A stretch of DNA of 60,198 nucleotides, the filler included. It is 6 parts of 6 records of this genome, joined end to end, with 100 filler letters (N's around TTAATTAATTAA, not from the genome) between each part and the next. Parts side by side here need not be neighbours in the genome. Positions count along the whole stretch, not along the records: positions 1 to 20,461 come from SRR2962707_429; 5 more parts are not named here. One strand, written 5' to 3'. Positions within the stretch are counted from its first letter, which is position 1. The number at the start of each line of letters is the position of its first letter. Both the position numbers and the translations under genes were made by a program. Positions 11,580-50,896 of this stretch are shown here, in pieces. The notes under the pieces were generated by a model. That model searched no databases, was not told the origin of the DNA, and saw only the letters and a program-made list of their open reading frames with translations.

Positions 11580-12563
11580 CTACCCTCCAATTGAGGTCAT
11601 CGAATTATTAAAAACACCTTTGTATTTTTCTTGTTCTTCAAAGCCTGTTTTAGAACGACTTCCTATGGTTGCTAGAATATGTTGTTTTATTTTTTCTTCT
11701 GAATTTTCACTTCTTAATAGGGTTCTAATATTCATCCTTGGTTTTCCGTACAGGCAAGTAATAACATCTCCAGTAGCAGAAATCCGTAGGCGATTGCAAC
11801 TTCCGCAAAATGTTCTCGAAAAAGACGGGATAAGCCCAAAAGTTCCTTTATAATCTTTGATTTTATAATTTATAGAGGTAGATGTTTTTTCTGAAACTAA
11901 TTTTTCAATCGCATCAAAACGATTGGCAATATGCTCATAAATAGCTTTATAGTCCCATTTAATAGTATTGAAGCTTTTTGAACCTCCATTAAAAGGCATT
12001 TCTTCCAAAAACCGAACTGAGACATTGTAATATTTTGTGAGTTCTACTAATGGAATAATCTCTTCAATATTCTGCCCCTCTAAGGCAATACAATTAATCC
12101 GCACATTAAAACCTTCAGAAATCAATTTTATAAGGTTTTCATAAACCGTTTCATACTGATTTCTTCTGGTTATTCTCTCAAAAACATCTTTATTTATAGC
12201 ATCTAAACTTACATTGATGTTTTTTATTCCTAAGGACTTTAATTCGTTTATATAGGGTCCAATTAAAGTAGCATTGGTAGTAACAGAAATATCGTCTAAA
12301 CCTTCTAAAGAAGCTAAATGACGAAATAAAACCATTAAATCTTTTCTAACAAAAGGCTCCCCGCCTGTTAATCTAATTTTATTAATCCCTTGAGAAACCA
12401 TTATACTACTCAACCTACAAAGCTCCTCCATTGAAAATAAATCTTTGCGCTTTGCAAAATCAATCCCTTCTTCTGGCATACAATAATTGCAACGTAAATT
12501 GCAACGGTCTGTAACCGCCAATCTTAAATAATTTATAACTCTATTATGGTTGTCTATTAACAT
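11580..12563 (-). CDS. moaA: GTP 3',8-cyclase (radical SAM)
   Basis: CNLRCNYC, TGGEP, FCGSCNRLR, C-terminal MTSIGG; likely start MLIDNHNR. Confidence 0.95.
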   Translation of the reverse strand: MLIDNHNRVINYLRLAVTDRCNLRCNYCMPEEGIDFAKRKDLFSMEELCRLSSIMVSQGINKIRLTGGEPFVRKDLMVLFRHLASLEGLDDISVTTNATLIGPYINELKSLGIKNINVSLDAINKDVFERITRRNQYETVYENLIKLISEGFNVRINCIALEGQNIEEIIPLVELTKYYNVSVRFLEEMPFNGGSKSFNTIKWDYKAIYEHIANRFDAIEKLVSEKTSTSINYKIKDYKGTFGLIPSFSRTFCGSCNRLRISATGDVITCLYGKPRMNIRTLLRSENSEEKIKQHILATIGSRSKTGFEEQEKYKGVFNNSMTSIGG

Positions 12564-12588
12564 ATAATTTTTTAATAGCTTCATAAAA

Positions 12589-12828
12589 TCATCCGCCACT
12601 AACTGGAGGAATCAGTGCAATTTCATCATCAATTGTGATATTATCTTCTTCTTGCGCATACTTATTATTTACAGCAATTGCCAACGAAGAAAGTTTTTTG
12701 AGTGCTGGATACTGCTCCATCAGAAAAAGCCTAAGCTGCTGTACAGTTTTTATTTTTTCTTCCGCAGAAATATATAAAGAAGCATCTCCAACTATCTCTC
12801 TTGTGATCCCAAAAAGTAAAATATTCAT
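12589..12828 (-). CDS. moaD: Molybdopterin synthase sulfur carrier subunit
   Basis: About 80-aa ubiquitin-like protein ending IPPVSGG. Confidence 0.9.
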   Translation of the reverse strand: MNILLFGITREIVGDASLYISAEEKIKTVQQLRLFLMEQYPALKKLSSLAIAVNNKYAQEEDNITIDDEIALIPPVSGG

Positions 12829-13039
12829 AATTGACACTTCGTTTTCTTATTGACTCGGCAATTGGTATTTAATACATCAAGGCAATTTACACCTCCAATA
12901 ATAATGGTTAAGTTAACCAAAAACAAAAGATTAGATTAAATTTTTCAGCTTATTTAACACTAAAAATGTACTTCTTTAAATTTATAAATGCTTTTTGCTC
13001 GATAATCAAAGTTTAACGCTCCAATACTTACATAACATT

Positions 13040-14371
13040 TTACTTTTTCAAAAGTGATTTCGACAAATCCTCAAGAGATTTTCCCTTTGTTTCTGGCATT
13101 AAAAAGATTACAAATAACAATTGTAAAATCATCATTCCAGCAAAGAAATAGAATATTGGCGCTGGCCCTACAACTTCTGTAAAGTAAGGGAAAAAGTTTG
13201 TTATCAATGCTGCAAAAATCCAATGTGTAGAACTTCCTAAAGACATTCCGTAAGCTCTTACTTTATTTGGGAATATTTCAGAAATAAAAACCCAAATTAC
13301 AGCTCCTTGACCAATAGCATGAGATGCAATAAATATAAATGATAATATAGGCACTATGCTCCCTTCAGTATTTCCTGTATCAAAAGCTCTTCCTATAAAA
13401 AATAACGAAATAATATACCCGATAGAACCAATATACATAAGCTTTTTTCGTCCGCTTCTATCTATTAGATACATTCCAACAAGGGTAAATATTAAATTTA
13501 TAATCCCAATTCCTACCGTAGAAAACATTGAAGATTCGCTCCCCAGCCCAGCATCTCTAAATATTCTTGGTGCATAATAAATTACAGAGTTAATTCCTGA
13601 AAGCTGATTAAAAAATGCAAATAAGAATGCCAAGAGAATAACAAAACTATATTTCTTAGATAAAAACCTTTCTTTAAGTGATGTTTTAGTTGCATCCATT
13701 GCTGCGGAGGCTTTTATTTCCTGTAATTCCGCTTCATAATTATCATTATTAATTAATTTTAAAGTCTGTAGTGCTTCTTCTTCGGCATTGTGTTTTAACA
13801 ACACCCACCTTGGGCTTCTTGGGAGTTTTCTTACTAAAAGTGCAAAAGCTAAAGCTGGAATTGCTTCTACTCCCAACATCCATCTCCAAGCATTTTCTAA
13901 ATTTAGTAAGCTAATAACATAATTAGACACATAAGCCATTAAAATACCTAAAACTAGATTTAATTGAAAAGACGCTACTAATTTCCCTCTATTTTGCGCT
14001 TGAGAAATTTCTGAAATATAAATAGGCGCTGTTACAGAGGATGCTCCAACAGCAATTCCTCCAATAAATCTAAAGATTACAAAGGAGTATATATCTAATG
14101 CTAAAGCTGAACCTATGGCCGATACGAGAAACAAAATTGCAATCCAAAAAAGGGTTTTTCTTCTTCCATATTTATCCGAAGGAAATCCTCCAAAAATAGC
14201 TCCTATTAATGTACCGTAAAGCGCAACTGCAATTGCAAAACCATGCATCAAGTCGCTTAAACCCCATGTTTGCTGTATTGATTGTTCTGCTCCAGAAATT
14301 ACTGCGGTATCAAAACCAAATAAAAAACCACCAAGCGAGATGATGATGGCCCATTGTAATACTTTACTCAT
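13040..14371 (-). CDS. Sugar porter family MFS transporter
   Basis: GGFLFGFDTAVISG, DKYGRR, QLSGIN, PETKGKSLE. Confidence 0.95.
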   Translation of the reverse strand: MSKVLQWAIIISLGGFLFGFDTAVISGAEQSIQQTWGLSDLMHGFAIAVALYGTLIGAIFGGFPSDKYGRRKTLFWIAILFLVSAIGSALALDIYSFVIFRFIGGIAVGASSVTAPIYISEISQAQNRGKLVASFQLNLVLGILMAYVSNYVISLLNLENAWRWMLGVEAIPALAFALLVRKLPRSPRWVLLKHNAEEEALQTLKLINNDNYEAELQEIKASAAMDATKTSLKERFLSKKYSFVILLAFLFAFFNQLSGINSVIYYAPRIFRDAGLGSESSMFSTVGIGIINLIFTLVGMYLIDRSGRKKLMYIGSIGYIISLFFIGRAFDTGNTEGSIVPILSFIFIASHAIGQGAVIWVFISEIFPNKVRAYGMSLGSSTHWIFAALITNFFPYFTEVVGPAPIFYFFAGMMILQLLFVIFLMPETKGKSLEDLSKSLLKK

Positions 14372-14450
14372 TCTAAGTTTTCATTTTGAAGCATACTATT
14401 CCTTCCGAAACAGAAATGCTTCTGGTTGACTGGTTTTAAAGGTAAGAATT

Positions 14451-15230
14451 CTATTGAAGTTCCAAAGCCTTTTTTAAATCTAGCTCCGCAACAGAATTTA
14501 TTATCAAATCTGGTTTAAATGCATAATCGTTTAAATCGTTTTCTTTAGAAACTCCAGAAAGCGTCAAAATAGTAGTATATCCTAATTGGACACCTCCTAA
14601 AATATCGGTATCCATTGTATCTCCAATTATAATAGTCTCTCGAGCTTCTAAACCTAGATACTTTCTTGCAGAACGCATCATTACGGGGCTCGGTTTCCCT
14701 ACAGAAAAAGCTTTTTTTCCAGTAGCTTCTTCAATCATGGCAACAATAGCTTTTATTCCTAAATTAGACCATCCCTTTTTCATAGGAGATGGATCTAAAT
14801 TGGTAGCTATTAATTTTGCTCCTGAGAGGATCATATCTACTGCATTGTTTACCATTTCTAAAGTGAAGTTTCTTCCTTCTCCAACCACCACAAAATCTGG
14901 ATTTTGATTTACTAATGTATATCCGTGTTGATGTAAACTGCTTATTAATCCACCTTCACCTAAAACATAAGCTGTTCCGTTTGGGTTCATAAAAGATAAA
15001 AAATAAGCCGTAGCCATTGCGCTTGTATAGACGTTTTCTTCTTTTATTTTTATCCCCATCCTCGCCACTTTATTTACTGTGTCTAAAGGGGTACGCTGAC
15101 TATTATTGGTCATAAACAAAAAAGGGATATTCTCTTTTTGCAATGTTTTTATAAATTTATCAGCGCCAGGAATTAAGGTGTCATTACCATAAATTACACC
15201 ATCCATATCAATTAAAAATCCTTTCTTCAT
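14451..15230 (-). CDS. HAD-IIA phosphatase (NagD-like)
   Basis: DMDGV, TNNS, GKP, GDTMDTDI motifs. Confidence 0.9.
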   Translation of the reverse strand: MKKGFLIDMDGVIYGNDTLIPGADKFIKTLQKENIPFLFMTNNSQRTPLDTVNKVARMGIKIKEENVYTSAMATAYFLSFMNPNGTAYVLGEGGLISSLHQHGYTLVNQNPDFVVVGEGRNFTLEMVNNAVDMILSGAKLIATNLDPSPMKKGWSNLGIKAIVAMIEEATGKKAFSVGKPSPVMMRSARKYLGLEARETIIIGDTMDTDILGGVQLGYTTILTLSGVSKENDLNDYAFKPDLIINSVAELDLKKALELQ

Positions 15231-15369
15231 CTTAGAATCTCTTTATTTCTTTTACTTTTACTTATGCAACTAAATTACAATTTAATATTTTTCTCTTGTA
15301 AGAAATAGCAATAAAAACGTCCAATACTACTAGGATTTCACAAAATCAATATTTATACTCAATTAAACT

Positions 15370-15705
15370 ATGGAAAAGACATATTACGACCCAGCAGATT
15401 TAAAAAAATTCCCTAAAATAACAGAATGGAGTGAGGAGTTAGGAGAAAAATTTTTTGATTACTACGGAAAAGTTTTTGAAGAAGGAGCTCTTACAGCCAG
15501 AGAGAAGTCTTTAATTGCATTAGCAGTATCTCATGTTGTAAAATGCCCATATTGCATAGATGCATATACAAAAGACGGTCTCCAAAGAGGGATTACTAAA
15601 GAAGAAATGATGGAAGCCGTGCATGCTGGAGCTGCTATTGAGAGTGGCGCTACTTTGGTCCATGGGGTTCAAATGATGAAGAAATACGATAAGTTGTCCA
15701 TGTAA
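15370..15705 (+). CDS. CMD/AhpD-like protein (arsenosugar-cluster-associated peroxidase-like)
   Basis: EKSLIALAV...CPYCIDAY motif; first gene of the arsS cluster. Confidence 0.85.
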   Translation: MEKTYYDPADLKKFPKITEWSEELGEKFFDYYGKVFEEGALTAREKSLIALAVSHVVKCPYCIDAYTKDGLQRGITKEEMMEAVHAGAAIESGATLVHGVQMMKKYDKLSM

Positions 15706-15899
15706 TTGTAAAATATGGATTGTTAGTTGTTATTACGGAATTAAGGGTTATATTTTTCAAAAATATGAATCTGCTACAACTTCTCTAGCAGTAGCTGTAC
15801 TGTGTAACAACGTAACTTCATAACTTTACAACTCTAAAATGTAAGGCTTATTTCCTTTACAGGACAATTTTAAAAGACATTATACGCTAACATATCAAC

Positions 15900-16955
15900 A
15901 TGCTAAAAAAATCGTTACATAAACGAGCAAACCAACTTTCTCAATCGAAAAAGCAATTAGAAATACTTTCTAATGGAATTTTTGCGAATGGAGAACTACC
16001 TACTTTTAAAGACAAAATTGCAGAGACAAATCAGTTTCCGCTTCGTCCAAATAAAACAGAAATCCTACAAATTAATGTGGGATATATGTGCAACCAAGTA
16101 TGCTCCCATTGCCATGTAGATGCAGGCCCCGACCGTAAGGAAATAATGACAAAGGAAACCATGCAACAATGTCTAGATATTATAAAAAATACGGGGGCTC
16201 ATACGCTAGATTTAACTGGAGGAGCTCCAGAAATGAATCCTAATTTCCGATGGTTTGTAGAGGAGGCTTCCAAAATTGGAGTGGAAGATTTTATTGTACG
16301 AAGCAACCTTACCATTATTGAAGCGAACAAAAAATACAACGACCTTCCAGATTTTTTTAAAAAACACAATATCCATGTAATTTCTTCCATGCCACATTGG
16401 ACCAAAGAAAAGACCGATAAACAACGCGGACAGGGAGTTTTTAACAAATCAATAGAAGCTTTAAAAAAATTAAATGCTGTTGGCTACGGAATGCCGAATA
16501 GCAATTTAAAACTGGATTTGGTTTACAATCCTGCTGGCGCTTTCTTACCTACCAATCAAGCCTCCATGGAAAAGGATTTCAAAAAAGCATTAATAGACGA
16601 TTTCGGAATTCAGTTTCACAATCTGTTTGCCATTACTAATCTTCCTATTTCTAGATTTTTGGAATACCTCATCGCTTCAGAAAACTACGAAGATTATATG
16701 TATTCCCTAGTAGAAGCTTTTAACCCTTCCGCAGTAAAAAATGTAATGTGCACCAATACTATTTCCATTAGTTGGGATGGTTGGCTTTATGATTGCGACT
16801 TCAACCAAATGCTCGACCTCAAAGTAGATAGTAAAGTAAAACATGTTAGTGAGTACAATGAAGATATTTTAAACAATAGAGATATTATTATCTCTCAACA
16901 TTGCTATGGTTGTACTGCTGGCGCAGGAAGTAGCTGCCAAGGAACAGTAGTCTAA
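15900..16955 (+). CDS. arsS: Arsenosugar biosynthesis radical SAM protein ArsS
   Basis: CNQVCSHCHVDAGP, DLTGGAPE, YDCDFNQML, Cys-rich C-terminus HCYGCTAGAGSSCQG. Confidence 0.9.
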   Translation: MLKKSLHKRANQLSQSKKQLEILSNGIFANGELPTFKDKIAETNQFPLRPNKTEILQINVGYMCNQVCSHCHVDAGPDRKEIMTKETMQQCLDIIKNTGAHTLDLTGGAPEMNPNFRWFVEEASKIGVEDFIVRSNLTIIEANKKYNDLPDFFKKHNIHVISSMPHWTKEKTDKQRGQGVFNKSIEALKKLNAVGYGMPNSNLKLDLVYNPAGAFLPTNQASMEKDFKKALIDDFGIQFHNLFAITNLPISRFLEYLIASENYEDYMYSLVEAFNPSAVKNVMCTNTISISWDGWLYDCDFNQMLDLKVDSKVKHVSEYNEDILNNRDIIISQHCYGCTAGAGSSCQGTVV

Positions 16956-16971
16956 AATAATGTGCTTTTAA

Positions 16972-17580
16972 ATGAAAGAAAAAAATATTTTAATCATATT
17001 TATCCGTAATCCAGAATTAGGAAAAGTAAAAACTAGACTTGCTAAAGATATAGGTGATAAAAAGGCCCTTGAGATATACATTTTTTTACTCGAACACACC
17101 GCCAAAGTTGCCAAAAGGGTTAACAGTAATAAAGTTGTATATTATTCTGAAGAAATTCCGAAAAAAGATTTGTGGAATCTAGAACATTTTGAAAAAAAAC
17201 TGCAATGTAGTAGTGACCTCGGAGAACGAATGATGCATGCTTTTGACGAAAGTTTCAAAGAAGGTTACCAAAATGTAATAATTATTGGTAGTGATATGTA
17301 CGATATTACTGAAAAACACATTGAAGAAGCCTTCCAAAAACTCAATAATTATGATGCGGTAATTGGACCGGCTACAGATGGAGGTTATTACCTTTTAGGT
17401 TTAAAAAGAATGTATCCTAAAATATTTCAACAAAAAAAATGGGGCACAGATACTGTTTTAAGAGAGACTTTAGAAGATTTAAAAACCATTAATGTAGCTT
17501 TGTTAGAAGAACTTAATGATGTGGATGTGTATGAAGATATTGAGGAACATCCTGCATTTCAAAAATTTTTAAAAGATTAA
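16972..17580 (+). CDS. DUF2064/TIGR04282-type glycosyltransferase-like protein
   Basis: PELGKVKTRLA, DLGERM, IGSD, GPATDGGYYLLG, DVD motifs. Confidence 0.85.
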   Translation: MKEKNILIIFIRNPELGKVKTRLAKDIGDKKALEIYIFLLEHTAKVAKRVNSNKVVYYSEEIPKKDLWNLEHFEKKLQCSSDLGERMMHAFDESFKEGYQNVIIIGSDMYDITEKHIEEAFQKLNNYDAVIGPATDGGYYLLGLKRMYPKIFQQKKWGTDTVLRETLEDLKTINVALLEELNDVDVYEDIEEHPAFQKFLKD

Positions 17581-17583
17581 ATT

Positions 17584-18399
17584 ATGACCAAAAACGAATT
17601 ACTAGAAACAACAGCATATTTAAAAAGTAAGGGCTTTGAAGCTCCAGAAGTTGGGATTGTTTTAGGAACTGGACTAGGAAAATTGGTAGATGAAATTGAA
17701 AATCCAATTGTAGCTCATTACAATCATATTCCATTTTTTCCTTTGGCTACCGTAGAATTCCACAGCGGAAAATTAATTTATGGTGAAATTGAAGGTAAAA
17801 AAGTAGTGGTTATGCAAGGTCGTTTTCACCTGTATGAAGGTTACGATTTTATTGATATTACTTATCCAATTCGTGCTATGCATGAACTCGGAATTAAAAA
17901 ACTACTTATTTCTAATGCTGCAGGCTCTATAAATTTAGATTATAAAAAAGGAGATTTAATGCTTCTTGAAGACCATATTAATTTACAAGGCGGTTCTCCA
18001 CTAGCATTTAAAGGAGTTAGCGAATTTGGAGAACGATTTGTGGATATGAGTCAGCCCTACGACGTTGACATGAGAAATACAATTATCAACACAGCAAAAC
18101 AAGAAAATATTTCCCTCCAAAAAGGGGTGTATGTTTCGGTAGTTGGTCCGCAATTAGAAACAAAAGCGGAATACAGATACCTTAAAATTATTGGCGCCGA
18201 TGCTGTAGGAATGAGTACCGTTCCAGAAGTTATTGTTGCCAACCATTTAAAACTGCCAGTTGCCGCTATTTCTGTAATTACAGATGAAGGAGATCCAGAT
18301 AATTTAGAACCTGTAGATATTAATGAAATTATTAGAATTGCCGGGGAAGCAGAACCAAAAATGATTACACTCTTCAAAAAACTAATTAAGCAGCTATGA
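17584..18399 (+). CDS. Purine nucleoside phosphorylase (trimeric PNP/MTAP family)
   Basis: LGTGLG, QGRFHLYEG, NAAG, GPQLETKAE, GMSTVPEV. Confidence 0.9.
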   Translation: MTKNELLETTAYLKSKGFEAPEVGIVLGTGLGKLVDEIENPIVAHYNHIPFFPLATVEFHSGKLIYGEIEGKKVVVMQGRFHLYEGYDFIDITYPIRAMHELGIKKLLISNAAGSINLDYKKGDLMLLEDHINLQGGSPLAFKGVSEFGERFVDMSQPYDVDMRNTIINTAKQENISLQKGVYVSVVGPQLETKAEYRYLKIIGADAVGMSTVPEVIVANHLKLPVAAISVITDEGDPDNLEPVDINEIIRIAGEAEPKMITLFKKLIKQL

Positions 18400-19364
18400 G
18401 TTATTTAGAAACTACAAAAGACGTATATAAAAATGCTGCTTTAACTCCAGATGTTGGACTTTGTTGCACCACAAATCCTATTTGGGAATTACCGGGATTA
18501 AAAATTCCGAAAATAATGCAAGAGATGAACTATGGTTGCGGGAGCACTGTACACCCAAGAGATTTGGTTAACAATCCAAAAATTCTATATGTTGGTGTAG
18601 GCGGAGGCATGGAACTTTTACAGTTTGCTTATTTTTCTCGTCAAAAAAATGGGGTTATTGGTGTAGATGTTGTAGATGAAATGTTAGAAGCTTCTCGTAA
18701 AAATTTTAAAGAAGCCGAAACCCAAAACAATTGGTTTAAAAGTGATTTTATAGACTTAAAAAAAGGCGATGCTTTACACCTTCCTGTTGCAGATAATAGT
18801 ATTGATGTGGCAGCGCAAAATTGTTTGTTTAATATTTTTAAAACTGAAGAATTAAAAAAGGCTATTTCAGAAATGTATCGGGTTTTAAAACCACATGGGC
18901 GACTTGTAATGAGTGATCCCACTTGTGAGCAACCAATGAGCGAGGAACTCCGAAACAACGATAAGCTTAGAGCATTGTGTTTAAGTGGAAGCCTCCCTAT
19001 AAAAGAATATGTAAAAATGCTTACCGATGCTGGTTTTGGAACCATCGAAATAAGAGCTAGAAAACCATATAGAATTCTAGATCCATTGCACTACAATACA
19101 GAAGAATTAATTTACATTGAATCGATTGAAGTGGCTGCCATAAAAGATCCAATGCCGAAAGACGGCCCTTGTGTTTTTACTGGAAAAGCTGCCATTTATT
19201 ACGGTAAAGAGGATTATTTTGATGATAAAAACGGACATGTTCTATTACAAAACCAACCCCTTGCTGTTTGTGATAAAACTGCTAACACCTTGAAAAATTT
19301 AGAGAGAAATGATATTTTTATTTCTGAATCTACTTGGCATTACGACGGCGGTGGATGTTGTTAA
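18396..19364 (+). CDS. arsM: Arsenite S-adenosylmethionine methyltransferase (arsenosugar-cluster ArsM)
   Basis: GLCCTT, NYGCGS, SAM-binding GVGGG, QNCLFN, ALCLSG, C-terminal GGGCC; ATGA overlap with PNP. Confidence 0.88.
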   Translation: MSYLETTKDVYKNAALTPDVGLCCTTNPIWELPGLKIPKIMQEMNYGCGSTVHPRDLVNNPKILYVGVGGGMELLQFAYFSRQKNGVIGVDVVDEMLEASRKNFKEAETQNNWFKSDFIDLKKGDALHLPVADNSIDVAAQNCLFNIFKTEELKKAISEMYRVLKPHGRLVMSDPTCEQPMSEELRNNDKLRALCLSGSLPIKEYVKMLTDAGFGTIEIRARKPYRILDPLHYNTEELIYIESIEVAAIKDPMPKDGPCVFTGKAAIYYGKEDYFDDKNGHVLLQNQPLAVCDKTANTLKNLERNDIFISESTWHYDGGGCC

Positions 19365-19494
19365 ACTATAACTTAACAGTAAAATCTAACCAATAACATA
19401 TGTTTTAAAAAGTAAGTTATTGAATAATATTCCGACTTTTTTATGGAAAATCCTTATCATAAAAATAGATTTTAAAAGCTAAGAAGAGCATCCT

Positions 19495-20394
19495 TTGGAA
19501 AAGTATTTCGACATTATAAAAAATTCGTATTCAGGATATTTTAATTACCTGATTTCTGAAATTACCAGCTTCCATTGGGAGAATTACTTTTATGGACTAC
19601 TCATTATTTCTTTCACCATTTGGGGGCTCGAAATTTTATTTCCTTGGCGAAAAAATCAGAAAATTTTTAGAGAAGATTTTTGGTTAGATACCTTCTATCT
19701 CTTCTTTAATTTTTTCTTATTAAATCTTATTGCATTAATTGCACTATCCAATACCGCAGCCGAGATTTTTAATGATTTCCTAAATGTTTTCGGAGCTTCA
19801 CTTTCTAATTTTCAACTTTTTGATGCTTCAAAACTACCTTGGTTATTAGGCCTATTTATCTTTTTTATAGTAGCCGATTTTATTCAATGGGGAACACATA
19901 TTTTATTACACAGGATTCCATTTCTTTGGAATTTTCATAAAACACATCATTCCGTAAAAGAAATGGGATTTGCAGCTCACTTTCGCTATCATTGGATGGA
20001 ACCAGTAGTTTATAAATCTATTTTATACTTTCCTATTGCTATTATTGGAGGTTATAACATCGAAGCAGTGGCTATTGTTCATTTTTTTAATATTACTATT
20101 GGACATCTAAACCATGCAAATATTGGTTGGGATTATGGTCCGTTTAAATACATTTTAAACAATCCTAAAATGCATATTTGGCATCATAGTAAAGAAATGC
20201 CAAATAAATATGGGGTTAACTTCGGAATTACATTGAGTATATGGGACTATATATTCAAAACTAATTACATTCCTTACAGCGGAAGGGATATTGAATTAGG
20301 TTTTCATGATGACGATGAATATCCGAAGAAATTTATAAATCAGGAATTATATCCATGGAGTTCTAAAGAGAATTCAATAAACAAAAAAAAGTAA
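19495..20394 (+). CDS. Sterol desaturase / fatty acid hydroxylase family membrane protein
   Basis: His boxes HILLH, HKTHH, HLNH, HIWHH; TM segments. Confidence 0.88.
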   Translation: MEKYFDIIKNSYSGYFNYLISEITSFHWENYFYGLLIISFTIWGLEILFPWRKNQKIFREDFWLDTFYLFFNFFLLNLIALIALSNTAAEIFNDFLNVFGASLSNFQLFDASKLPWLLGLFIFFIVADFIQWGTHILLHRIPFLWNFHKTHHSVKEMGFAAHFRYHWMEPVVYKSILYFPIAIIGGYNIEAVAIVHFFNITIGHLNHANIGWDYGPFKYILNNPKMHIWHHSKEMPNKYGVNFGITLSIWDYIFKTNYIPYSGRDIELGFHDDDEYPKKFINQELYPWSSKENSINKKK

Positions 20395-20461
20395 ACTCCT
20401 TGCGGAAAAACTGCGAGGCATTAAGAGGGATAATCAACTACCTCGGGGCAAGCCCACGAGG
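20393..20461. repeat. Two related REP-like hairpins at the contig end
   Basis: CCTTGCGG-AAAAA-CTGCGAGG (20398-20418) and CCTCGGGG-CAAG-CCCACGAGG (20441-20461), both preceded by AACT(A). Confidence 0.5.
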
Positions 20462-20561
20462 NNNNNNNNNNNNNNNNNNNNNNNNNNNNNNNNNNNNNNN
20501 NNNNNTTAATTAATTAANNNNNNNNNNNNNNNNNNNNNNNNNNNNNNNNNNNNNNNNNNNN
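20462..20561. other. Artificial contig spacer
   Basis: N44-TTAATTAATTAA-N44 (stops in all six frames); composition changes across it. Confidence 0.99.
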
Positions 20562-20588
20562 TGTGTGTGTGTGTGTGTGTGTGTGTGT
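20562..20588. repeat. (TG)n microsatellite
   Basis: Perfect dinucleotide run at the contig start. Confidence 0.95.
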
Positions 20589-21222
20589 AAAGCCACAACA
20601 GCCTTTTGACATAGCCTGTACAAAAGTGGTCTTGCTTACACATAGCCTGTACACATGTCCGGCCTTTTTTGGAGAGGAGTCTGCCCGGTCTGCTCAGACA
20701 ATAGTCGCCCCGATGGGGCAGTATGGTTTTTCTGGGAAGAGCCGGCTATTGCGATTCACTTATCATGGAGGACCTTCCTTCTGAATGTTTCACATACATT
20801 ACCAGATTCAGAAGCAGCTCTGTATGGCGGAAGTTCTGATGGAGCGGCGCAATAGGGGGTGGGTGTACTTTTTCAATGGCTGAATGAGTATGCTACGCTG
20901 TAAGATGAATGAAGTCTAAGATACAATACAAGGAGATCTGGAGGTAATGCATCCTTCCTATTCGCAGAACAGAATGAATGTCGTTGTGTGTATGTCTGAG
21001 CCGTTTCAACTGTTGGTGGGCTCTCTTGTGAGAGTTTGCTGGTATGTCTGGTTCAAACACATTGGTAGTTGTTCAAAATACAATTTTAGTTGAGGTGCTT
21101 TATCGACACAAAGATTGTGACTTGGCTTCCGAAAGAGGTTCACTGAGCCACTTGGAAAAACGTGGTACCGGTGATGTTTTGACACAAATCACATCGTCTA
21201 CTGTTCTGCGGCTACAGCATGC

Positions 21223-24200
21223 TCAAATGCCTACCGGTACTTCGGGGGCACTTTGCGTTTTAGCCGGCTCAGCACTCCCGCTCTTCGAGCTAATCGGTGT
21301 ATCGTTGTCTTGTGGCTGTACTTTTGCAGAGGATACAGTTTGCTTTCGTTTGGCGTTGACGGCTACAACTGCAGCCACCACAGCAACCAGAACCGCTGCT
21401 ACGACGGCAGCGGATATTCCACCGACAACTTCGGCAGGTAGGCCTTCCTGGTCAATGCTGTTGGGGTTTAGCTGTGAAGTAGTTGTGTCTGCTGTGTGGC
21501 CATTGGTGGTCGGCAAAGGCGACAACGAGGGATCGGTCATAGTATCCCACTGCGCAACACACTGGTCCGCGGCAGTGGTTTGGTCCCAACCGACAATACA
21601 CTCGTCACATGCATCACCCGCATAACCCTTAAAACAGATGCATTCGGCAGTGGCAGGATGGCAAGTTCCACGATTGGCTGGGCAATTGGCACAGCGCTGC
21701 AGCACGAGGCCGCAATCTTCGACGCAACAGTCAATGGATGGATGGTCATAGCAGGTTTCGCCGCCCTGACAAACGCCATCTCCACAGTAGCCACCCAGCG
21801 AGGAATCAACGGACACCTGACAGTCGCTTCCACTGATGCACAGCGGAGTTGACAAAGTATAGTCGATGCCTGCACCAAACGCAACGACTTCGACAGTGAG
21901 GGAGATACCGCCGGAAACCCCGAGTAATCGCTGCCGTTGTTGTGAGGGCGAGCCTGCGTTGGTAGACCTGACGTCTTTGACGGTGCAATTCAAGCGGTTG
22001 GAAGCTGCGGTAACGTTTGCACAGACATCATCGATAAAGGCATCAACAACATCTGCACAATCACTGTCAAATAAACCAGCCGCGCAGGCAGCAGATATGT
22101 CACTACTTTCAATAGAGACTGCTCCTTCTACTGCACATGATGAGCCGTCACCGTCGCACATCCCACAACCGTCGAACGAACCCGACCAGCAGCAAGTGCC
22201 ATCGGGACTGAGTGCAGTGGTACAACACGCTCCATCTTTGGCAATTGCAATTGCTGAGCCACCGCAGACCCCACACGCGTCAAGCATGGACGCATCTCCT
22301 TCGCAACATGTGCCCGTGGAATCCAACACGAACATAGATCCTGAAGCAGCAGATTGCACGGCATCCTCGCAGCACTCGCCAAATTCGTCGCTGAGCCCGC
22401 TGGAGCAGCACTTGCCGCGGATGTTCTGAACACCTGATGCACAGGCTGCCAAATTAATTTGACAGTACGGTCCTGCAAATCCAGTCTCACACAAGCAAGC
22501 GCGTGCGCCGCATGTTCCGTGTCCACTGCACGGTGTGGTCGTGTTGCCAGTGGACGGCATGCAGAGGTGCGTGCAACCTTGCAGCATAGCTGTTGCGGAT
22601 GGACTGCATGTTCGTTCTTGCACTGGTGCATTTGACACATTTCCACACAATGACCAGTCGTCATATTCGATTGCCCTTTTGGCAGAATAGTCATAGCACA
22701 ATACCTCACGCCTTTGGATCGCGCTCTCACAGTAAGCACTGAAATTGGCGAGCATACAACTTGACCACTCGAGGGCTTTCCAACCAACAGACGGAGCACA
22801 GTCAAAAGTGTTGCACACTTCGCTTGACTTTGGCTGGCTTGCTGCGAGACCAGAGTGCATTTCGCATGGACTACTTCCATTCACTTCCGACACAACGCCA
22901 AGACAAGACTCACACGTGACTTTTCGGCTACGTGTGCCTCCACCGCACGTGACTGAGCATGCAGACCAAGCCGTTGTAGTCCAACTCCATCCGTTAGCTG
23001 CATCTGTCGCTGTGTAATCTGGATCACAAGCTCGGACAAGGTCACTACGGCTCGGCTCGGTTTCGATTTCGCACAATGAAGCGGCCGCCACCACGCCCTC
23101 GCTTGAAACACACTGCCACGTACGTGACTGCGTGTAACCACCCACTCCAGCACCGATGCAGGCAAACGAGCAGTCGCCAAAGTTGGAATAGCGAATGGTG
23201 TAGGTGACACAGCGAATATCGTTGCAGCTCTCTTCCTCTGATGGTCGCGGGTCTGCCAGTGCCAGCAAACACTGTGCATCATCAACTACGGGCCATGCAT
23301 CTATTGTAGTCCCAGCGCTCAGGTCAACGCGTCGACACTGCACGGTTCGACTTCGAGTTCCAGAACTTGGCCCGCACGATTGATCACAAGGGCCGAAGTC
23401 GCCAACTTCCCAGACAAGCTGTTGCGTACAATTCAGAAGTGTGGGAATGCACTCTTCGACGACTGAAATATCCACAACGTCGGCACATTCAGACATGTTG
23501 GCTTGACGCAAGCGAGGGACCGGTGTATATTCAGTGCGAACACTGACTGATGGTCTTGAAACACAATCTATCACAGGGAAAAAGTTCGCGTACTTGACAC
23601 CGTTATTGGAGGCCTGCAGCCGAGCTACCGTGTCGTCAGAAACACGATGAGTTCGATATTCACGACACTCTGTTTGTTCGACGTATTCGCAGCCGCTCAG
23701 AGTAAAGTTGGATTCGATGACCCACCAACCCGCTAAAAAACCATCGACCCAGCCATAGTCCCATCGATCAAGCCATTGGTTGTAATTGTAAAAAGCTTCA
23801 GCTTTGCCCCCCAAAGAGTCGGTGCAGTCACGCGATTGCCCGGACATGGCTGGGTTGAACACAGGAGCATACTGTCCCTCCGCGTGGGCTAATCTAGCGT
23901 CACGTTCTGTGCATTCTGAGGTGCGATTTCGCATACCAGTTGTAGAGCCACATGAAGCGGAGCAAGGACTCCACGCGGAGGTTGATACCTGGTACTTCGA
24001 TACAACAGAGAAAAAACTGCTAAAGTTGCTTCCACCTTCTCCCACCACTTCGAGCATATACGTGCGGCCAGGTTGGAGAAAACGGGGAACGCGAAAGCCG
24101 CCTGCTAATTTGCCAGTCTGTGGCACGTACAATCCTACAGTCGCCACCTTTGACCCACCATTGCACGATGGTCCATCCCACAAATATAGGTGTACACGTG

Positions 24201-27200
24201 ATCGCGAATTCATTCCAGTTGAATCCCATTCAATGTCGTAGTTGCCATCCACCACCCAAACAGTATTCACAGTTGGCTCAAGTACCGCCGGAGCTCCTAC
24301 AAAACTTGCAGGTACGTAAGCTGGCTCACCATTCCATCGGCTTGGACTATACTCCAAGACTCCATTACTGTTGACACAAACACTATCATCAGTGCGGTCC
24401 ACATCAACGTCCACATCGGCATGCTGGTTTTGAGATATAAAGTCCTGAAGGGCCTTCCACTTCGGTGCGTCGTGTCCTTGGCCAGTGAACTCCTGGTGCC
24501 CCCATGTTCCATACTTCGAGTATGCACCGGTCGAAGAAAACGCCATAAATGGCCGAGTGGCATTTGCAAGGCCGTACTTTGTTGACATCACCTCCAAAAA
24601 GTCTGTGTACCTGTGACAACCACCAACCACAAGGTTAACTCAAAACGCCCGTTGGAGGTCACAAAGCAAAACAAACATCCAGAAGTAAAAATATTTCTGT
24701 AATGCGGAATTTGCTTTTCTCACGAACACTGCAGCCATCCCGTCGTCTCGAGCAGTTGCAACAAGAAGCTCTGTGATGTGCCCATTGGCACTTCCACCTT
24801 CAATAACACCTGGTTCAACTAGTCCTGGTCCTGCCTCGTAAGTAATAACATCGACCCGCTGAACAGAATCGCCGCTGGTATTATGAAGTGCCACGTCACT
24901 GGTGGTAACGAAGGCAAAAATCTCAGCAAGACTGTTTCCAATGTTATCATTGTCGATGCCCGCGTCGCGATACTGTTCAACTGTTGACTCCAATGTAGCA
25001 AGCACTTGCTCGACAGAGTACGTGGCCCAACTTGAGTCGATTTCTGGCGTTGCACTGAGATAGCCTGTGACGCCAATGTAGTCTACCCAGCGAGCGGTAT
25101 CATTCCAAGACAGCATTTCTTCAACCCACGACTTCCCAGCGTACGTCCATGTCCCCAAAACCACTTTGAGGCGCCCCTCCTTTCCCCAGTCGCTTGTTAC
25201 CTTGCCTAAATCAAATAATTGGTGGGCAGTTTCATGCCACACTTGTGAAATTTCTTTAGATCGCTGGGCATTCCACCGAGCACGGTTGCATTGATCACCA
25301 TACAACTTGCAGCCCCCAGTGGCTGCCAAGGGCGCGCCACGAATTGTTGCGTACTGGCCTGCCGGAAACAGAGTATTCCAAACCTCATTGGAATACCTGC
25401 ATGTTACACATTTGTCGCAGACACACGATACGTCAACATCGGCACGGATCGACGATGCAGCCATTGGCATGCGTTTGACACACACAAGGTGACTTACTCA
25501 ACAAAAACTTTCGTATCTGAGCGTTTGTCCAGCTCAGTGAGGACCATTGTGGCCATGGCCCGAACATATGCATCATCGGCGGCGTGTGGTACGCAGTACC
25601 ATGCGTTAGCGCCAATAGTGTTCGTCAACAAAAGCGAATACTCAAACGCAGTACCGCCCGAATCGTGGTTGACTTGTGTTCGGTCAGATGGTAGTGTGCG
25701 CCTTTTCCACACAGGAGTAGAATTCACAGGCCAGCCATTCGTTGAGTGGAAGTCCATGAACCGCAGAGTCTGGAACCTGGACATGTCTTTCAAGAAAACT
25801 GGGTGGAACGGCTGTTGGAGATATGACTTTGCGTAATACTCACCAGGGAGCAGTATGCGGATGTTACGAGGCGGGTCTTTCACATCGATGGCTTCCCATG
25901 TGATTGCAACTCCATTATCAGTGCAGTAGGGTAGCCATCCTGCGCGGTCAAACCAGCACGCAGGATCGCACGAAAGCTCTACACGGACGTCAACACGGCC
26001 TTTTCGACGTGATACTATCATCGCGTCCATGCCTTCGAAGCTCAGCGTGCCGTTTCCGTCGAACAACACGGTGTACACTCCATTGGTGCCGTGATGACAA
26101 AGATCTCGTAATGTCAATGCAACGAGATTTTGACGCCGAGAGTTTAGACGCACCGGGTAACCCTTGCCTAACGTGTCTGGTGCAACAGCGATGGCAGCTG
26201 ATGAGTTGATATCACCATCATGCTGCCAGATGGGTTCGCCATTCCCCCACACATATTGACTTTCTTCATCACCCAAATCAGCGGCGTTGATGGACGTGAG
26301 ATAGCTCGAGTGTTTCATAACATCCACGAATATGCTCTCCAGCCCATACCCAACCTCACCAACGTTCATTCCCACGGGAGAATTGTAGTTCGGGCGCCGT
26401 GCGGCATCAAAAAATTCGCATGTCTGCCCAGAAAATCCTGCCCAACACTGACAAGCACCGTTTACGCATGTTCCTTGCTCTGAACACCCTCGATCACCAC
26501 AGCCACAGACTCCGGGGCCCACACAATCAGTTGTCAATGCGGAGTGACCACAGTCACACGACCACACACACGTTGCCTGATCACTGCTCCATTCCCACCC
26601 ATCGTCACAGATACATGGAACATCGCCAAGGTTGGCCTCACCAATCAAAACTGCAGGATGACACTGGCCATGTCCGTGGCAACCACAGTCAATCTGACAT
26701 TCATCGCCAGTAAATCCCGGGTAGCAACTGCAGATATCAACATCAAGGCAGTCACCGTTCCACGAGCAGTTTCCTTCACAGGTCGCGCGAGCACATGTAC
26801 GTCCAAAGTAGCCGTCACTGCAGTCACACCCATATAAGCGAAAGGACGGTGGCTCCGTATGGGCCACTCGGCAAGCTCCCCGGTCAAAAGAGCACTTGTA
26901 CCCACAGTCAAATTCATCAACATAGTGCACTACAGAGCAGTCCTCTCCCTCGAACCCAGTAAAACATAAGCATGTCGCTGCGGTGCCATCTAAGCACCAC
27001 CCGTTGCCACTGCCACACGTACCTCTCGTTTCCGCGGTGCACATGTCAATGAAGCGGTTCACACGGCGAATATCGTCAACGGAACAAGACAACTCGCGGC
27101 TGGTGTGACTAGCTGCATCCTCCCAAACTACATCCAAGATACCTTGGTACTTTGGAGCGGTCTGCGGATTCTGTGTGGAGCCTTCCAGTAACGACCAGCT

Positions 27201-30200
27201 CCCGTATTGACTGTATTCGCCAATTGTGCCAAAGTGCAGCGCTTTGTCCATTGTTTGCAAAACATGCCGATAGAACGTTGCTGTGAGATTGCGCATTCGT
27301 GGACTTCGATGAGCTGCGATAACCAAATCATCAGAGGCACCAGTGCTGAGCCCAGCAGGTCCACACTCATATGCAAGGACCCGAAGAGTTCCATTCGAAC
27401 GGTTGCGAATCAACGCGGCGTGCTCTGCAGCACTCACAATTGTTGATGGCATGAGTTCCCAAAGCTGATCTAGCACAGCTTCAGTGGAAGCAGCAACGTT
27501 CTCCATCGCTGGGCCAAAATATATGGCAGGCCCGATGGCGTCGATCCCGCCTGCAAGACCTTCTTTGCGAGCGCTTCTGTTCCATTCAGAATCTGGTGCT
27601 TTCGTTGGCATCGGGCCAAAATCACAATCTTCGAGAATGTGCCGTGTGACATCAACATTACTCAGTTGAGTGGACAAAAAAAACTGAAGACGCGGAAGTT
27701 TGGTAACCGATGACTCAGCTTGCAAGTCACTGAACACGCCTCTCATGGTCGCACTTGCGTTCCGCGTTGCCTCAACTGCCCAACAATGCCTTGATGGCAA
27801 GCCTCTCCGCGTAGCTTCCAATGCTGCGTAGTCTCCACCAAAGAAACCTGTGTGCCACAGTTCATTGCCAACTTCTATCACGACCTCTACATCGGGTCGA
27901 AGCTCTCTTGCTAGCAGGTGTGCCAGCCCTGTGTAGTAGTTTGTTGTTGCTTCCACGGGCGTATTGATCCATAGATCTTTTCCAAGCAAGTTAGCAGTCA
28001 GTACAATGTACCTAGTTACAACATCAACATATTTGCATGGCCAAACTGAACGAATTGTTGCCGCGTAATTCAACTCTTGAACAACAAACCCGAAGAGGAG
28101 ACAACACGTCACAGCAACTCAAACCCAGGTTTGGAACTTTGAGTGAGTGCTGCGGTCACGTACTCAAGTGGAATACCACCCGGACCTGTCACAACGCGGT
28201 TCCGAAAGTCTGGTCTTCCATTCCAGTTAGGATCTGGTTGACCTTCTTCATTGGCATGCATCCAGTCCATGAATCGTAGATGCCCAAAGGGTTCTAGAAA
28301 CTGCAGGAAATGTGGATGGAACGGTAAAGCAGGCAATGGCCCGTGTAGTAGTTGACCATGTGTCACCACGCCGTGCTGCCGTAGACGGCCTTCCTTATCT
28401 GTGGTGTTGTATGTGCTTTGGGTCGCTACCTCGTCAGTTTCTGCTGCCGCCCACTCACCTTCGTCGAACCCGGGGAGAAACGCACGGATGTTTCGTACTG
28501 GATCTGCAGGGTTTGTAAACAGAATTGTGACAAGTAGGCCATTGTTGAGTTCAGATGTGAAAACCACGTCACATTCCATATACCCAGCCAGTTCGTCGGT
28601 GCGCGCGCGCACGACCCCGTCACTAGCCACGTCTAAACCCGCGCAGCTTAAAATTCCATCACCATCCCAGCGAATTACAAACTTTCCATTGACTGTGCCA
28701 ATCTGCTCCAGGTCCCGCATCACAAGAGATTGAATTTTCTCGTTGGTCCCGAGCTGGCGGGGGTACCCGTGGACGTCAAAATCGACGTCAAAGTTTTCAT
28801 CCCACACGGAATTGCCGTAGTGATATTGTTCAACCCAATCACCCATTACACGGTAAACATCAGTCAAAACAATGCCAGTCGAATAGTAGTTCAGGCCACT
28901 CAAACCAACACCAAGGCGAGCGCTGACGTTTTGTGTGTCGCAACGTCCACCTTGAGAATCGGCCAGGTCAATGTTGGCGCAAGTGGAACCCGAGAATCCA
29001 CGGAAGCATGTGCAAGTTCCATTGATGCAAATACCCTGTCGTACGGTGCATGAATTATTGCACCCGGCAACAATTCGTGGCACCACGTCATCAGATGTCA
29101 CGGGAAAGTTGCTTGGAGCTGTACCAGTCTCCGAAATCGCTTTCAGTGGCGCGGAGGGGTCTGTAGCAAAGTCTGTCAGCGCTTTCCATAAAGGAGAATC
29201 CCAGTCAAGCCCTTCATTGTCACTGTAGTACGAAACTGTCTCATGCCAAGCGTCGCGATCCGCTTCAATTTCGTCAGGTGTAAGTCGGCTGGCATTCCCT
29301 CCACGAACGCTGGAAAATATCTGCGACAGATCTGTCACCGATGCTGAAGATGAAGATGGACTGCCACTACTGTCAGTAGAAAAAAACACTTCCTCAGTGG
29401 CATTTGCGGCGCGTGGACGCACAAGGCCAGTGATGCCGCAGTCTTTCCCCCCAGTTGGGCAAGTGTGGACAGGTCCAACGTCAAAAAGATTGGCGACCAC
29501 ACCTCCACTGCCAGGAAGACGTGACCAACGGCGCAGCAGGTCAAGCGCCAAGTCATGACCAACCAACCAGGATCCCCCAAGAGCAACCAGTCGTGCCTCA
29601 AGTTCGGCTTCAAGACGATCCATACCAACGATATCAAGCCAATATTGTTCCAACTGCTGGATATTCCATTCAAAGGGTTCTTGACCGCTGTTCACTAGCG
29701 TACCATAAAGACCATCTGCCCGAGCCTCTTCCGAGACCCGTCGAAGGCCGCTGGAAGTCCAAGAAATACAACCATGGGTACTATCGTACAGCGCCTGCAT
29801 CTCGGTCGCCGAGGCAAGTTCATCTTCGCCCAAGCCGCCACGAACAACAGCATCCACAAACCACTCTGGACGAACAAAACAAGAGCCCACCCCTTCAGGT
29901 GGAGCGAAGTTGCCACCTTCCTGCGCGTATGATTGGATATTCGTGTGTGGATCGGATAAAAATGTACAACTGCGATTACTTTTTCCCGGTGGCAGGTAGA
30001 ATCCCCCGCATTCAGTAGCATTCATTCTACTGCACAAGCCTGCACATACTGGCGCGTCACGGAGGTCTGCACCTTCACCAATTGCAATGTTGGAAATCGA
30101 TGCGGCCACATCTTCCGTGACGGGCATTGCGTTAGCACAATTGAATTGTTTCTGCTCATAGTACGTGGACAGATCTGGATCGTTGGCTGTCCATTTGGCA

Positions 30201-31795: not shown

Positions 31796-31895
31796 NNNNN
31801 NNNNNNNNNNNNNNNNNNNNNNNNNNNNNNNNNNNNNNNTTAATTAATTAANNNNNNNNNNNNNNNNNNNNNNNNNNNNNNNNNNNNNNNNNNNN
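31796..31895. other. Artificial contig spacer
   Basis: N44-TTAATTAATTAA-N44. Confidence 0.99.
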
Positions 31896-37297: not shown

Positions 37298-37397
37298 NNN
37301 NNNNNNNNNNNNNNNNNNNNNNNNNNNNNNNNNNNNNNNNNTTAATTAATTAANNNNNNNNNNNNNNNNNNNNNNNNNNNNNNNNNNNNNNNNNNNN
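37298..37397. other. Artificial contig spacer
   Basis: N44-TTAATTAATTAA-N44. Confidence 0.99.
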
Positions 37398-44854: not shown

Positions 44855-44954
44855 NNNNNNNNNNNNNNNNNNNNNNNNNNNNNNNNNNNNNNNNNNNNTT
44901 AATTAATTAANNNNNNNNNNNNNNNNNNNNNNNNNNNNNNNNNNNNNNNNNNNN
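44855..44954. other. Artificial contig spacer
   Basis: N44-TTAATTAATTAA-N44. Confidence 0.99.
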
Positions 44955-50796: not shown

Positions 50797-50896
50797 NNNN
50801 NNNNNNNNNNNNNNNNNNNNNNNNNNNNNNNNNNNNNNNNTTAATTAATTAANNNNNNNNNNNNNNNNNNNNNNNNNNNNNNNNNNNNNNNNNNNN
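50797..50896. other. Artificial contig spacer
   Basis: N44-TTAATTAATTAA-N44. Confidence 0.99.

Follow-up and report, generated by a model that had tools for sequence, protein, structure and literature searches.

A reduced copy of a widespread flavobacterial arsenosugar-type operon includes a shared, MTAP-like purine nucleoside phosphorylase that may act after ArsS

The DNA analyzed here (the window, 60,198 nt) consists of six contigs of differing GC, joined at five places; only one contig, at positions 1–20461, is flavobacterial. On this contig, five co-oriented genes encode a CxxC protein of the AhpD/CMD type, the radical S-adenosylmethionine (SAM) enzyme ArsS, a TIGR04282/DUF2064 protein, a purine nucleoside phosphorylase (PNP), and the arsenite methyltransferase ArsM, followed by a gene for a membrane protein of the fatty-acid hydroxylase superfamily (Table 1). 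A sequence-only reading had described this set as an arsenosugar cluster in which the PNP, and then the DUF2064 protein, process the ArsS product. The layout it gave was confirmed: all five genes are on the plus strand, and all score above the curated NCBIfam cut-offs, including in profile searches with the TIGR04167, TIGR04169, TIGR04282, and ArsM models. The short spacings were likewise read directly from the sequence, with all gaps from arsS to arsM being ≤16 nt (16 nt from the arsS stop to the DUF2064 ATG, 3 nt from the DUF2064 stop to the PNP ATG, and an ATGA overlap at the PNP/arsM junction), and with 194 nt between the CMD gene and arsS. For genome-wide questions, genome G001 was used as a stand-in for the organism's own genome, because the gene order of the locus is identical and the proteins are 99–100% identical.

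The cluster as such is not new: it is common, and four of its five genes are already named arsenosugar genes by NCBIfam, as members above cut-off of a set that comprises TIGR04167, TIGR04169, TIGR04282, TIGR04283, and NF038099, with NF045521 as a neighbor. The locus differs from this set in that TIGR04283 and NF045521 remain below cut-off in G001, and in that the PNP lies outside the named set and is recognized by generic PNP models only. The ArsS match spans positions 2–302 of the 303 positions of TIGR04167 and includes a CX3CX2C radical SAM motif (C64NQVC68SHC71, i.e., C64x3C68x2C71) as well as a C-terminal cluster of cysteines (284, 299, 335, 338, and 346) in a DUF3641 domain (PF12345, 185.5 bits); in a homologue search covering close Flavobacteriaceae rows only, it is 82–88% identical to the ArsS of other genera over 99–100% of its length. 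The CxxC motif of the CMD protein is C59-P-Y-C62. The TIGR04282 family was named glycosyltransferase by NCBI from context only; the protein encoded here matches the nucleotidyltransferase CofC (TIGR03552) of the CofC/FbiD group weakly, without being a member (37.3 bits for a cut-off of 105), and its only solved relative is PDB 3cgx, a DUF2064 protein labeled "putative nucleotide-diphospho-sugar transferase" (E 3e-31). The PNP is also above cut-off for TIGR01697 (292.9 bits for 197.1), passes that of TIGR01700 barely (298.4 for 293.35), and is 49–60% identical to solved bacterial PNPs (three alignments).

Table 1 Features of the flavobacterial contig and joints between the contigs of the window.
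Feature	Position	Strand	Details
AhpD/CMD-like CxxC protein, TIGR04169 "arsenosugar biosynthesis-associated peroxidase-like protein"	15370..15705	+	111 aa; 193.7 bits, cut-off 120; Pfam CMD
ArsS radical SAM enzyme, TIGR04167, Cys form	15900..16955	+	351 aa; 442.4 bits, cut-off 300
TIGR04282/DUF2064 protein, CofC-like nucleotide-diphospho-sugar-transferase fold	16972..17580	+	202 aa; 220 bits, cut-off 134
Trimeric-class purine nucleoside phosphorylase (PNP), "type A"	17584..18399	+	271 aa; NF006054, 338.3 bits, cut-off 218
Arsenosugar-type arsenite methyltransferase ArsM, NF038099	18396..19364	+	322 aa; 581.3 bits, cut-off 400; full length
Fatty-acid-hydroxylase-superfamily membrane protein, OlsE-like	19495..20394	+	PF04116, 94.6 bits
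Artificial contig joint, N44-TTAATTAATTAA-N44	20462..20561	.	end of flavobacterial contig
Further joint, N44-TTAATTAATTAA-N44	31796-31895		
Further joint, N44-TTAATTAATTAA-N44	37298-37397		
Further joint, N44-TTAATTAATTAA-N44	44855-44954		
Further joint, N44-TTAATTAATTAA-N44	50797-50896		

Across a sample of 301 Flavobacteriaceae genomes (300 genera), ArsS was found above cut-off in 234. Where ArsS and the PNP are close to each other ("adjacent-type" loci, 20 fetched out of 57), the usual order is CMD, ArsS, rhodanese (NF045521), TIGR04282, PNP, ArsM, fatty-acid hydroxylase, DUF547, and TIGR04283. In these 20 loci, CMD, TIGR04282, and PNP are always present, followed by ArsM in 19, rhodanese in 18, DUF547 in 15, TIGR04283 in 14, and the hydroxylase in 10; ArsM lies downstream of the PNP wherever it occurs (19 loci), and CMD is directly upstream of ArsS in 39/39 family loci, even where the remaining cluster genes lie elsewhere. 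The gene order seen here is not due to chance, and recurs in 20/20 sampled loci of other genera in the family. Against this background, the locus under study is a reduced copy of an arsenosugar-type operon widespread in Flavobacteriaceae. The best G001 match to TIGR04283 reaches 44.1 bits for a cut-off of 182, and none was found on contig 1–20461; the best match to the NF045521 rhodanese reaches 58.2 bits for a cut-off of 145; and no DUF547 gene was found on this contig or in the 19-kb G001 locus, the genome-wide search not having been made for this domain. Most relatives carry all three genes, and the idea that this locus encodes a near-complete arsenoriboside route is thus unsupported.

We then evaluated how closely the PNP is tied to the cluster. 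For 90 genera with both ArsS and PNP placed among the best 150 rows of the ArsS and of the PNP searches, the PNP lies 1.4–3.0 kb from ArsS in 57 and ~9.6 kb away in 2, while it is found 0.38–0.86 Mb away on the same contig in 16 and on another contig in 15. When 20 of the 33 non-adjacent cases were fetched, TIGR04282 was directly upstream of the PNP in every one of them, as it was in the 20 adjacent loci, which makes the two genes adjacent in 40/40 sampled ArsS-positive genera. In the non-adjacent loci, the gene directly downstream of the PNP is ArsM in 16/20, and TIGR04283 or the hydroxylase in the other four. The ArsS loci of these genomes consist, in 18 of 19 cases, of CMD-ArsS without the rest of the cluster (12 of these with an upstream DUF2064-like fragment and two with ArsM); at the nineteenth (G098, L201), the rest of the cluster lies 8–12 kb off. 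Since the PNP is still with TIGR04282 and CMD-ArsS stands alone elsewhere, CMD-ArsS, and not the PNP, has moved. In one clade (L183–L200), CMD-ArsS is located 0.4–0.9 Mb from the remaining cluster, and in 12 of 19 loci the gene upstream of CMD-ArsS (e.g., L184, 6622–7326) encodes a 234-aa protein matching the C-terminal half of TIGR04282 only (93.5 bits for a cut-off of 134). Outside the family, 40 TIGR04282 loci were fetched from 21 other Bacteroidota families, and a PNP was detected ≤7 kb from TIGR04282 in four of these, three out of three in family f9 with the same order and one in f3 on the opposite strand.

The PNP active site provides a second line of evidence. We aligned 84 PNPs of the family and transferred the human numbering to them via chain 8swu (HMMER alignment), whose TN...NHEEV motif is the canonical one. 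The protein resembles the human and calf trimeric 6-oxopurine PNPs in its NF006054/TIGR01697 membership and its conserved phosphate and ribose residues (Arg80, His82, Tyr84, Glu192, Met210, and Ser211, kept in all rows). It departs from them at three columns that we take to be the specificity positions, where the human enzyme has Phe200, Asn243, and His257 and the protein studied here has Leu191, Asp234, and Ile246; with Asp234 and Ile246 in place of Asn243 and His257, it lacks the residue pair that marks the 6-oxopurine-specific type. An N243D variant of trimeric PNP accepts adenosine. The same pattern (Leu, Asp, Ile/Val/Leu; "type A") was found in the window PNP, in all 20 adjacent and all 20 non-adjacent loci, and in 23 of 24 close ArsS-negative rows, the single exception having Met and Phe, whereas Phe, Asp, and His ("type B") were found in each of the 19 divergent ArsS-negative rows, a single clade in a quick tree. 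Asp occurs in both types and is thus general to the family, and it is the loss of the 5'-OH-binding His that marks type A. Among solved chains, 4lna displays all three changes of type A and 8swt the Asp alone.

These features invite a comparison with MTAP/MtnP, the enzyme of methionine-salvage entry and 5'-deoxyadenosine disposal, which has the same PF01048 superfamily fold and likewise has Asp and an aliphatic side chain at the pair of columns setting base and 5'-group preference. By sequence, however, the window protein is a PNP-I protein and no MTAP, with 110.1 bits for a TIGR01694 cut-off of 274.85; it may function like an MTAP without being a member of that family. Its genomic context is consistent with such a role. 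MtnN (TIGR01704) was detected in 12/19 type B genomes (11 above cut-off) but in only 1/61 type A genomes, and MTAP in none of the 80 genomes searched, including the 61 of type A. With MtnN near-absent and MTAP not found in type A genomes, the PNP is left there as the sole PF01048-type candidate for cleaving methylthioadenosine (MTA) and 5'-deoxyadenosine, deaminase routes not having been searched. G001 itself has two PF01048 genes, the cluster PNP, which is its sole trimeric-class PNP, and a gene for a uridine-phosphorylase-like protein. Overall, PNP was found in 276/301 family genomes and is nearly always single; of the ArsS-positive genomes, 233 have it and one, G045 (83% complete), does not.

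Phosphorylases were also found beside ArsS in distant bacteria. Among 80 ArsS loci of other phyla, retrieved via an alignment of distant ArsS proteins (51 flanked by ≥3 kb at both ends), ArsS has a true MTAP (above the TIGR01694 cut-off) as a neighbor in L109, L111, and L116, and an MTAP homologue in L108 and L099 (tblastn identity to the L109 MTAP of 61% and 70%, respectively; on the opposite strand in L099). An MTAP-type gene thus occupies a place equivalent to that of the PNP in 5/80 distant loci in total, in at least two gene orders, either immediately before ArsS or downstream of it, behind a hydroxylase gene. The three aligned MTAPs display Asp and Ile/Val at the Asn243 and His257 columns.

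For the start of the pathway, passages of PMC13598754 describe the methylation of As(III) to dimethylarsenite by ArsM and, citing Cheng et al. 2021, the cleavage of SAM by ArsS, which couples the 5'-deoxyadenosyl radical to arsenic and yields 5'-deoxy-5'-dimethylarsinoyl-adenosine (DDMAA). As expected from family members, ArsM and then ArsS would convert arsenite to dimethylarsenite and DDMAA in this organism, with the CxxC AhpD-like protein as a putative thiol/disulfide partner of ArsS, a role that fits its fixed place before ArsS (39/39) and the existence of an ArsS-CMD fusion (P0153). We infer every step after ArsS from the gene identities, linkage, residues, and phyletic patterns observed here. 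As the cell's single MTAP-like phosphorylase, the PNP would salvage 5'-deoxyadenosine and MTA, and would also phosphorolyse DDMAA to adenine and 5-deoxy-5-dimethylarsinoyl-ribose-1-phosphate; the TIGR04282 protein would then take over this arsenic sugar-1-phosphate, its most probable activity being that of a nucleotidyl- or sugar-transferase. Because the rhodanese and TIGR04283 are missing from the genome and DUF547 from the locus, the end product may be a simpler arsenic sugar derivative, or may be finished by enzymes encoded elsewhere. Judging from sequence comparison, we favor, with some reservation, the view that the PNP is such a shared MTAP-like phosphorylase, serving general salvage while also cleaving the ArsS product and passing the sugar-1-phosphate to TIGR04282.

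Several observations weigh against an arsenic-related role of the PNP. It was found in 43 ArsS-negative genomes of the sample, with all 43 confirmed in a further check, and stands free of cluster genes in 15 of the 24 ArsS-negative genomes that have the same PNP type. In G044, from the same genus, every arsenic gene has been lost, and the order reads HAD, what is left of a decayed CMD start (1057–1446 of L008, G044:C28:10827-14633), an intact PNP, and a ClpP-like gene that corresponds to the gene after the hydroxylase in G001. Type A rows from ArsS-negative genomes are scattered among the positives in the quick PNP tree, with 17 changes needed, and general salvage of MTA and 5'-deoxyadenosine can by itself explain the special residues. 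Linkage is also limited in its reach: no phosphorylase was found within 7 kb of TIGR04282 in 36/40 loci of other Bacteroidota families, nor near ArsS in 75/80 distant loci, and ArsS is fused to PNP or DUF2064 in 0/28 long homologues scanned. Even within Flavobacteriaceae, the tie may stem from one ancestral arrangement, in which case the 40 genera are not independent. Finally, in nine of the 24 ArsS-negative genomes of type A, the gene immediately before the PNP is still TIGR04282 (L005–L007, L009–L012, L014, and L020), accompanied by near full-length matches to rhodanese in 8, to DUF547 in 7, to TIGR04283 in 6, and, in 2, to the hydroxylase; NF038099 ArsM stayed below cut-off or absent in all 24. 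The retention of this module without ArsS or ArsM suggests a non-arsenical substrate.

Being single-copy and kept after the loss of arsenic genes, the PNP is therefore a shared housekeeping enzyme and not a dedicated extra gene. This bears directly on the wording of the sequence-only reading, which implied an extra, specialized copy evolved for DDMAA. The operon position, with its 3-nt gap and ATGA overlap, and the non-canonical specificity residues would agree with a dedicated enzyme; yet G001 has no second PNP, MTAP, or MtnN, the residues are identical in 23/24 ArsS-negative genomes of the same PNP type, and the gene outlives the cluster. Copy number and retention have already largely refuted a dedicated copy, which we consider highly improbable. 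The gene identities and the ArsM/ArsS core given in that reading are correct, and the proposed succession of PNP and DUF2064 protein fares better, in that the 40/40 adjacency, the MTAP-like residues, and the five MTAP-type genes beside distant ArsS all speak for it. Likewise, the earlier reading would have yielded to a PNP that is the genome's housekeeping enzyme and is not conserved beside arsS: the PNP is indeed the only one of its class and is kept without arsenic genes, but it stays tied to the cluster through TIGR04282, its neighbor in all sampled ArsS-positive genera.

Once sharing is accepted, the role of the PNP could also be purely housekeeping, i.e., it would salvage purines and clear 5'-deoxyadenosine and MTA released by SAM enzymes including ArsS, leave the arsenic nucleoside untouched, and owe its operon place to history or co-expression. 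Its single copy in G001, its persistence in 43 ArsS-negative genera and in G044, the scattering of ArsS-negative rows over 17 changes, and the association of type A with the absence of MtnN (1/61 vs 12/19) and MTAP (0/80) are all in line with this. However, adjacency to TIGR04282 outlasts cluster splitting in 20/20 split loci, and distant bacteria have recruited MTAP, a member of another phosphorylase subfamily, to a place next to ArsS, with at least two further gene orders represented. An MTAP-like pocket should, moreover, accept DDMAA, because DDMAA is a 5'-substituted 5'-deoxyadenosine. We regard a role confined to housekeeping as unlikely.

The nine module-keeping genomes raise another possibility, namely that the sugar module (rhodanese, TIGR04282, PNP, DUF547, and TIGR04283) is not specific to arsenic and converts any 5'-deoxy-5'-X-adenosine (5'-deoxyadenosine, MTA, or DDMAA) to an activated 5-X-ribose and a glycoconjugate, CMD-ArsS-ArsM being an optional add-on that feeds in arsenic. 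Of this module, only TIGR04282–PNP is present at the locus studied here. If true, such a module would account for the nine genomes, for the separation of the two gene groups in one clade, and for a phosphorylase replacing MtnN and MTAP, with the waste of SAM enzymes as substrates. It would agree with the retention of TIGR04282–PNP in 9/24 ArsS-negative type A genomes, mostly with rhodanese, DUF547, and TIGR04283, with an NF038099 ArsM above cut-off in 0/24 of them, with the location of CMD-ArsS (ArsM in 2/19 loci) and the sugar module at separate sites in a whole clade, and with the many TIGR04282 loci of other families that have no ArsS within 7 kb. Conversely, the nine genomes are placed near one another in the PNP tree and could represent recent losses en route to decay, the NCBIfam naming and the ArsS/TIGR04282 neighborhood across phyla point to arsenic, and we know of no product of such a pathway, which also counts against it. 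Taken together, we consider a general module of this kind quite unlikely, and a shared PNP that also cleaves the ArsS product remains our preferred interpretation.

Arsenosugars are the main organic arsenic forms of marine food webs. For Synechocystis sp. PCC 6803, the ArsM/ArsS arsenosugar pathway was reportedly set out by Xue et al. in 2019. The proteins studied here resemble that system in that ArsM and ArsS are members above the equivalog cut-offs, which makes the first two steps, up to DDMAA, predictable in this organism. They differ in that the host is a heterotrophic flavobacterium and in that arsM and arsS sit in a single tight operon together with CMD, TIGR04282, and PNP. Work by Cheng et al. 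2021 on the ArsM/ArsS pathway is cited in PMC13598754 and PMC12159101, and passages of the former describe DDMAA-forming ArsS biochemistry for the Synechocystis enzyme only. In the literature searched, no enzyme was assigned to the steps after DDMAA, and a full-text search, whose texts did not include Xue 2019 and Cheng 2021, returned no paper linking a PNP, MTAP, or nucleosidase to ArsS; as far as we found, only the first two enzymes of arsenosugar synthesis are assigned. A phosphorylase and a CofC-like transferase kept together family-wide thus offer two concrete candidate enzymes for the steps beyond the nucleoside, the PNP being the candidate for the removal of adenine from the arsenic nucleoside. 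The frequency of ArsS (234/301 sampled genomes) also makes heterotrophic Flavobacteriaceae candidate arsenosugar producers.

The scan of 28 long ArsS homologues revealed fusions to an ArsM-type methyltransferase, before or after ArsS (7 clear and 1 weak), to one CMD (P0153), to one flavin reductase (P0168), and to one VTT membrane domain (P0242); the long fusion homologues are P0145, P0160, P0164, P0177, P0183, P0198, P0235, P0153, P0168, and P0242. Separately, a single 573-aa frame in a deltaproteobacterial metagenome-assembled genome (L106, 9257–10978) spans a DUF2064-like match and ArsS, and may be a fusion.

Regarding the limits of the contig, the N-spacers begin at 20462, 67 nt past the end of the fatty-acid hydroxylase gene, and GC is ~0.33 in 1–20461 and 0.50–0.64 in the pieces beyond. 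An rRNA operon was considered as the source of the GC jump past 20.5 kb, but Rfam was blank in 14000–30000 and the jump is the contig joint. Scans for sigma-70 promoters (22 vs 13.1 expected, sd 8.0, with a consensus unfit for Bacteroidota) and for terminators (3 vs 1.9 expected, sd 1.7) stayed within chance. Upstream of the cluster, the HAD phosphatase gene (14451–15230) and the sugar porter gene (13040–14371) were rejected as cluster members, being near ArsS in only 2/20 and 3/20 loci, respectively.

Downstream, the fatty-acid hydroxylase is a recurrent but optional cluster neighbor (10/20 adjacent-type loci). Among the distant loci, L111 has an OlsE-like gene after ArsS, and the blastp cluster of the hydroxylase also holds ArsS neighbors in L077, L090, and L128. 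Past the hydroxylase, G001 encodes a ClpP-like protease, a sulfatase, and one protein of unknown function. About 4 kb past the cluster (L182, G001:C1:102000-121000, positions 12094–18591), in a region beyond the end of contig 1–20461, co-oriented genes encode an FAD disulfide oxidoreductase, a NapH-like 4Fe-4S membrane protein, a pair of GT2 glycosyltransferases, and one more membrane protein; ArsS clusters that include an FAD oxidoreductase were also seen in L037, L109, L111, and L116.

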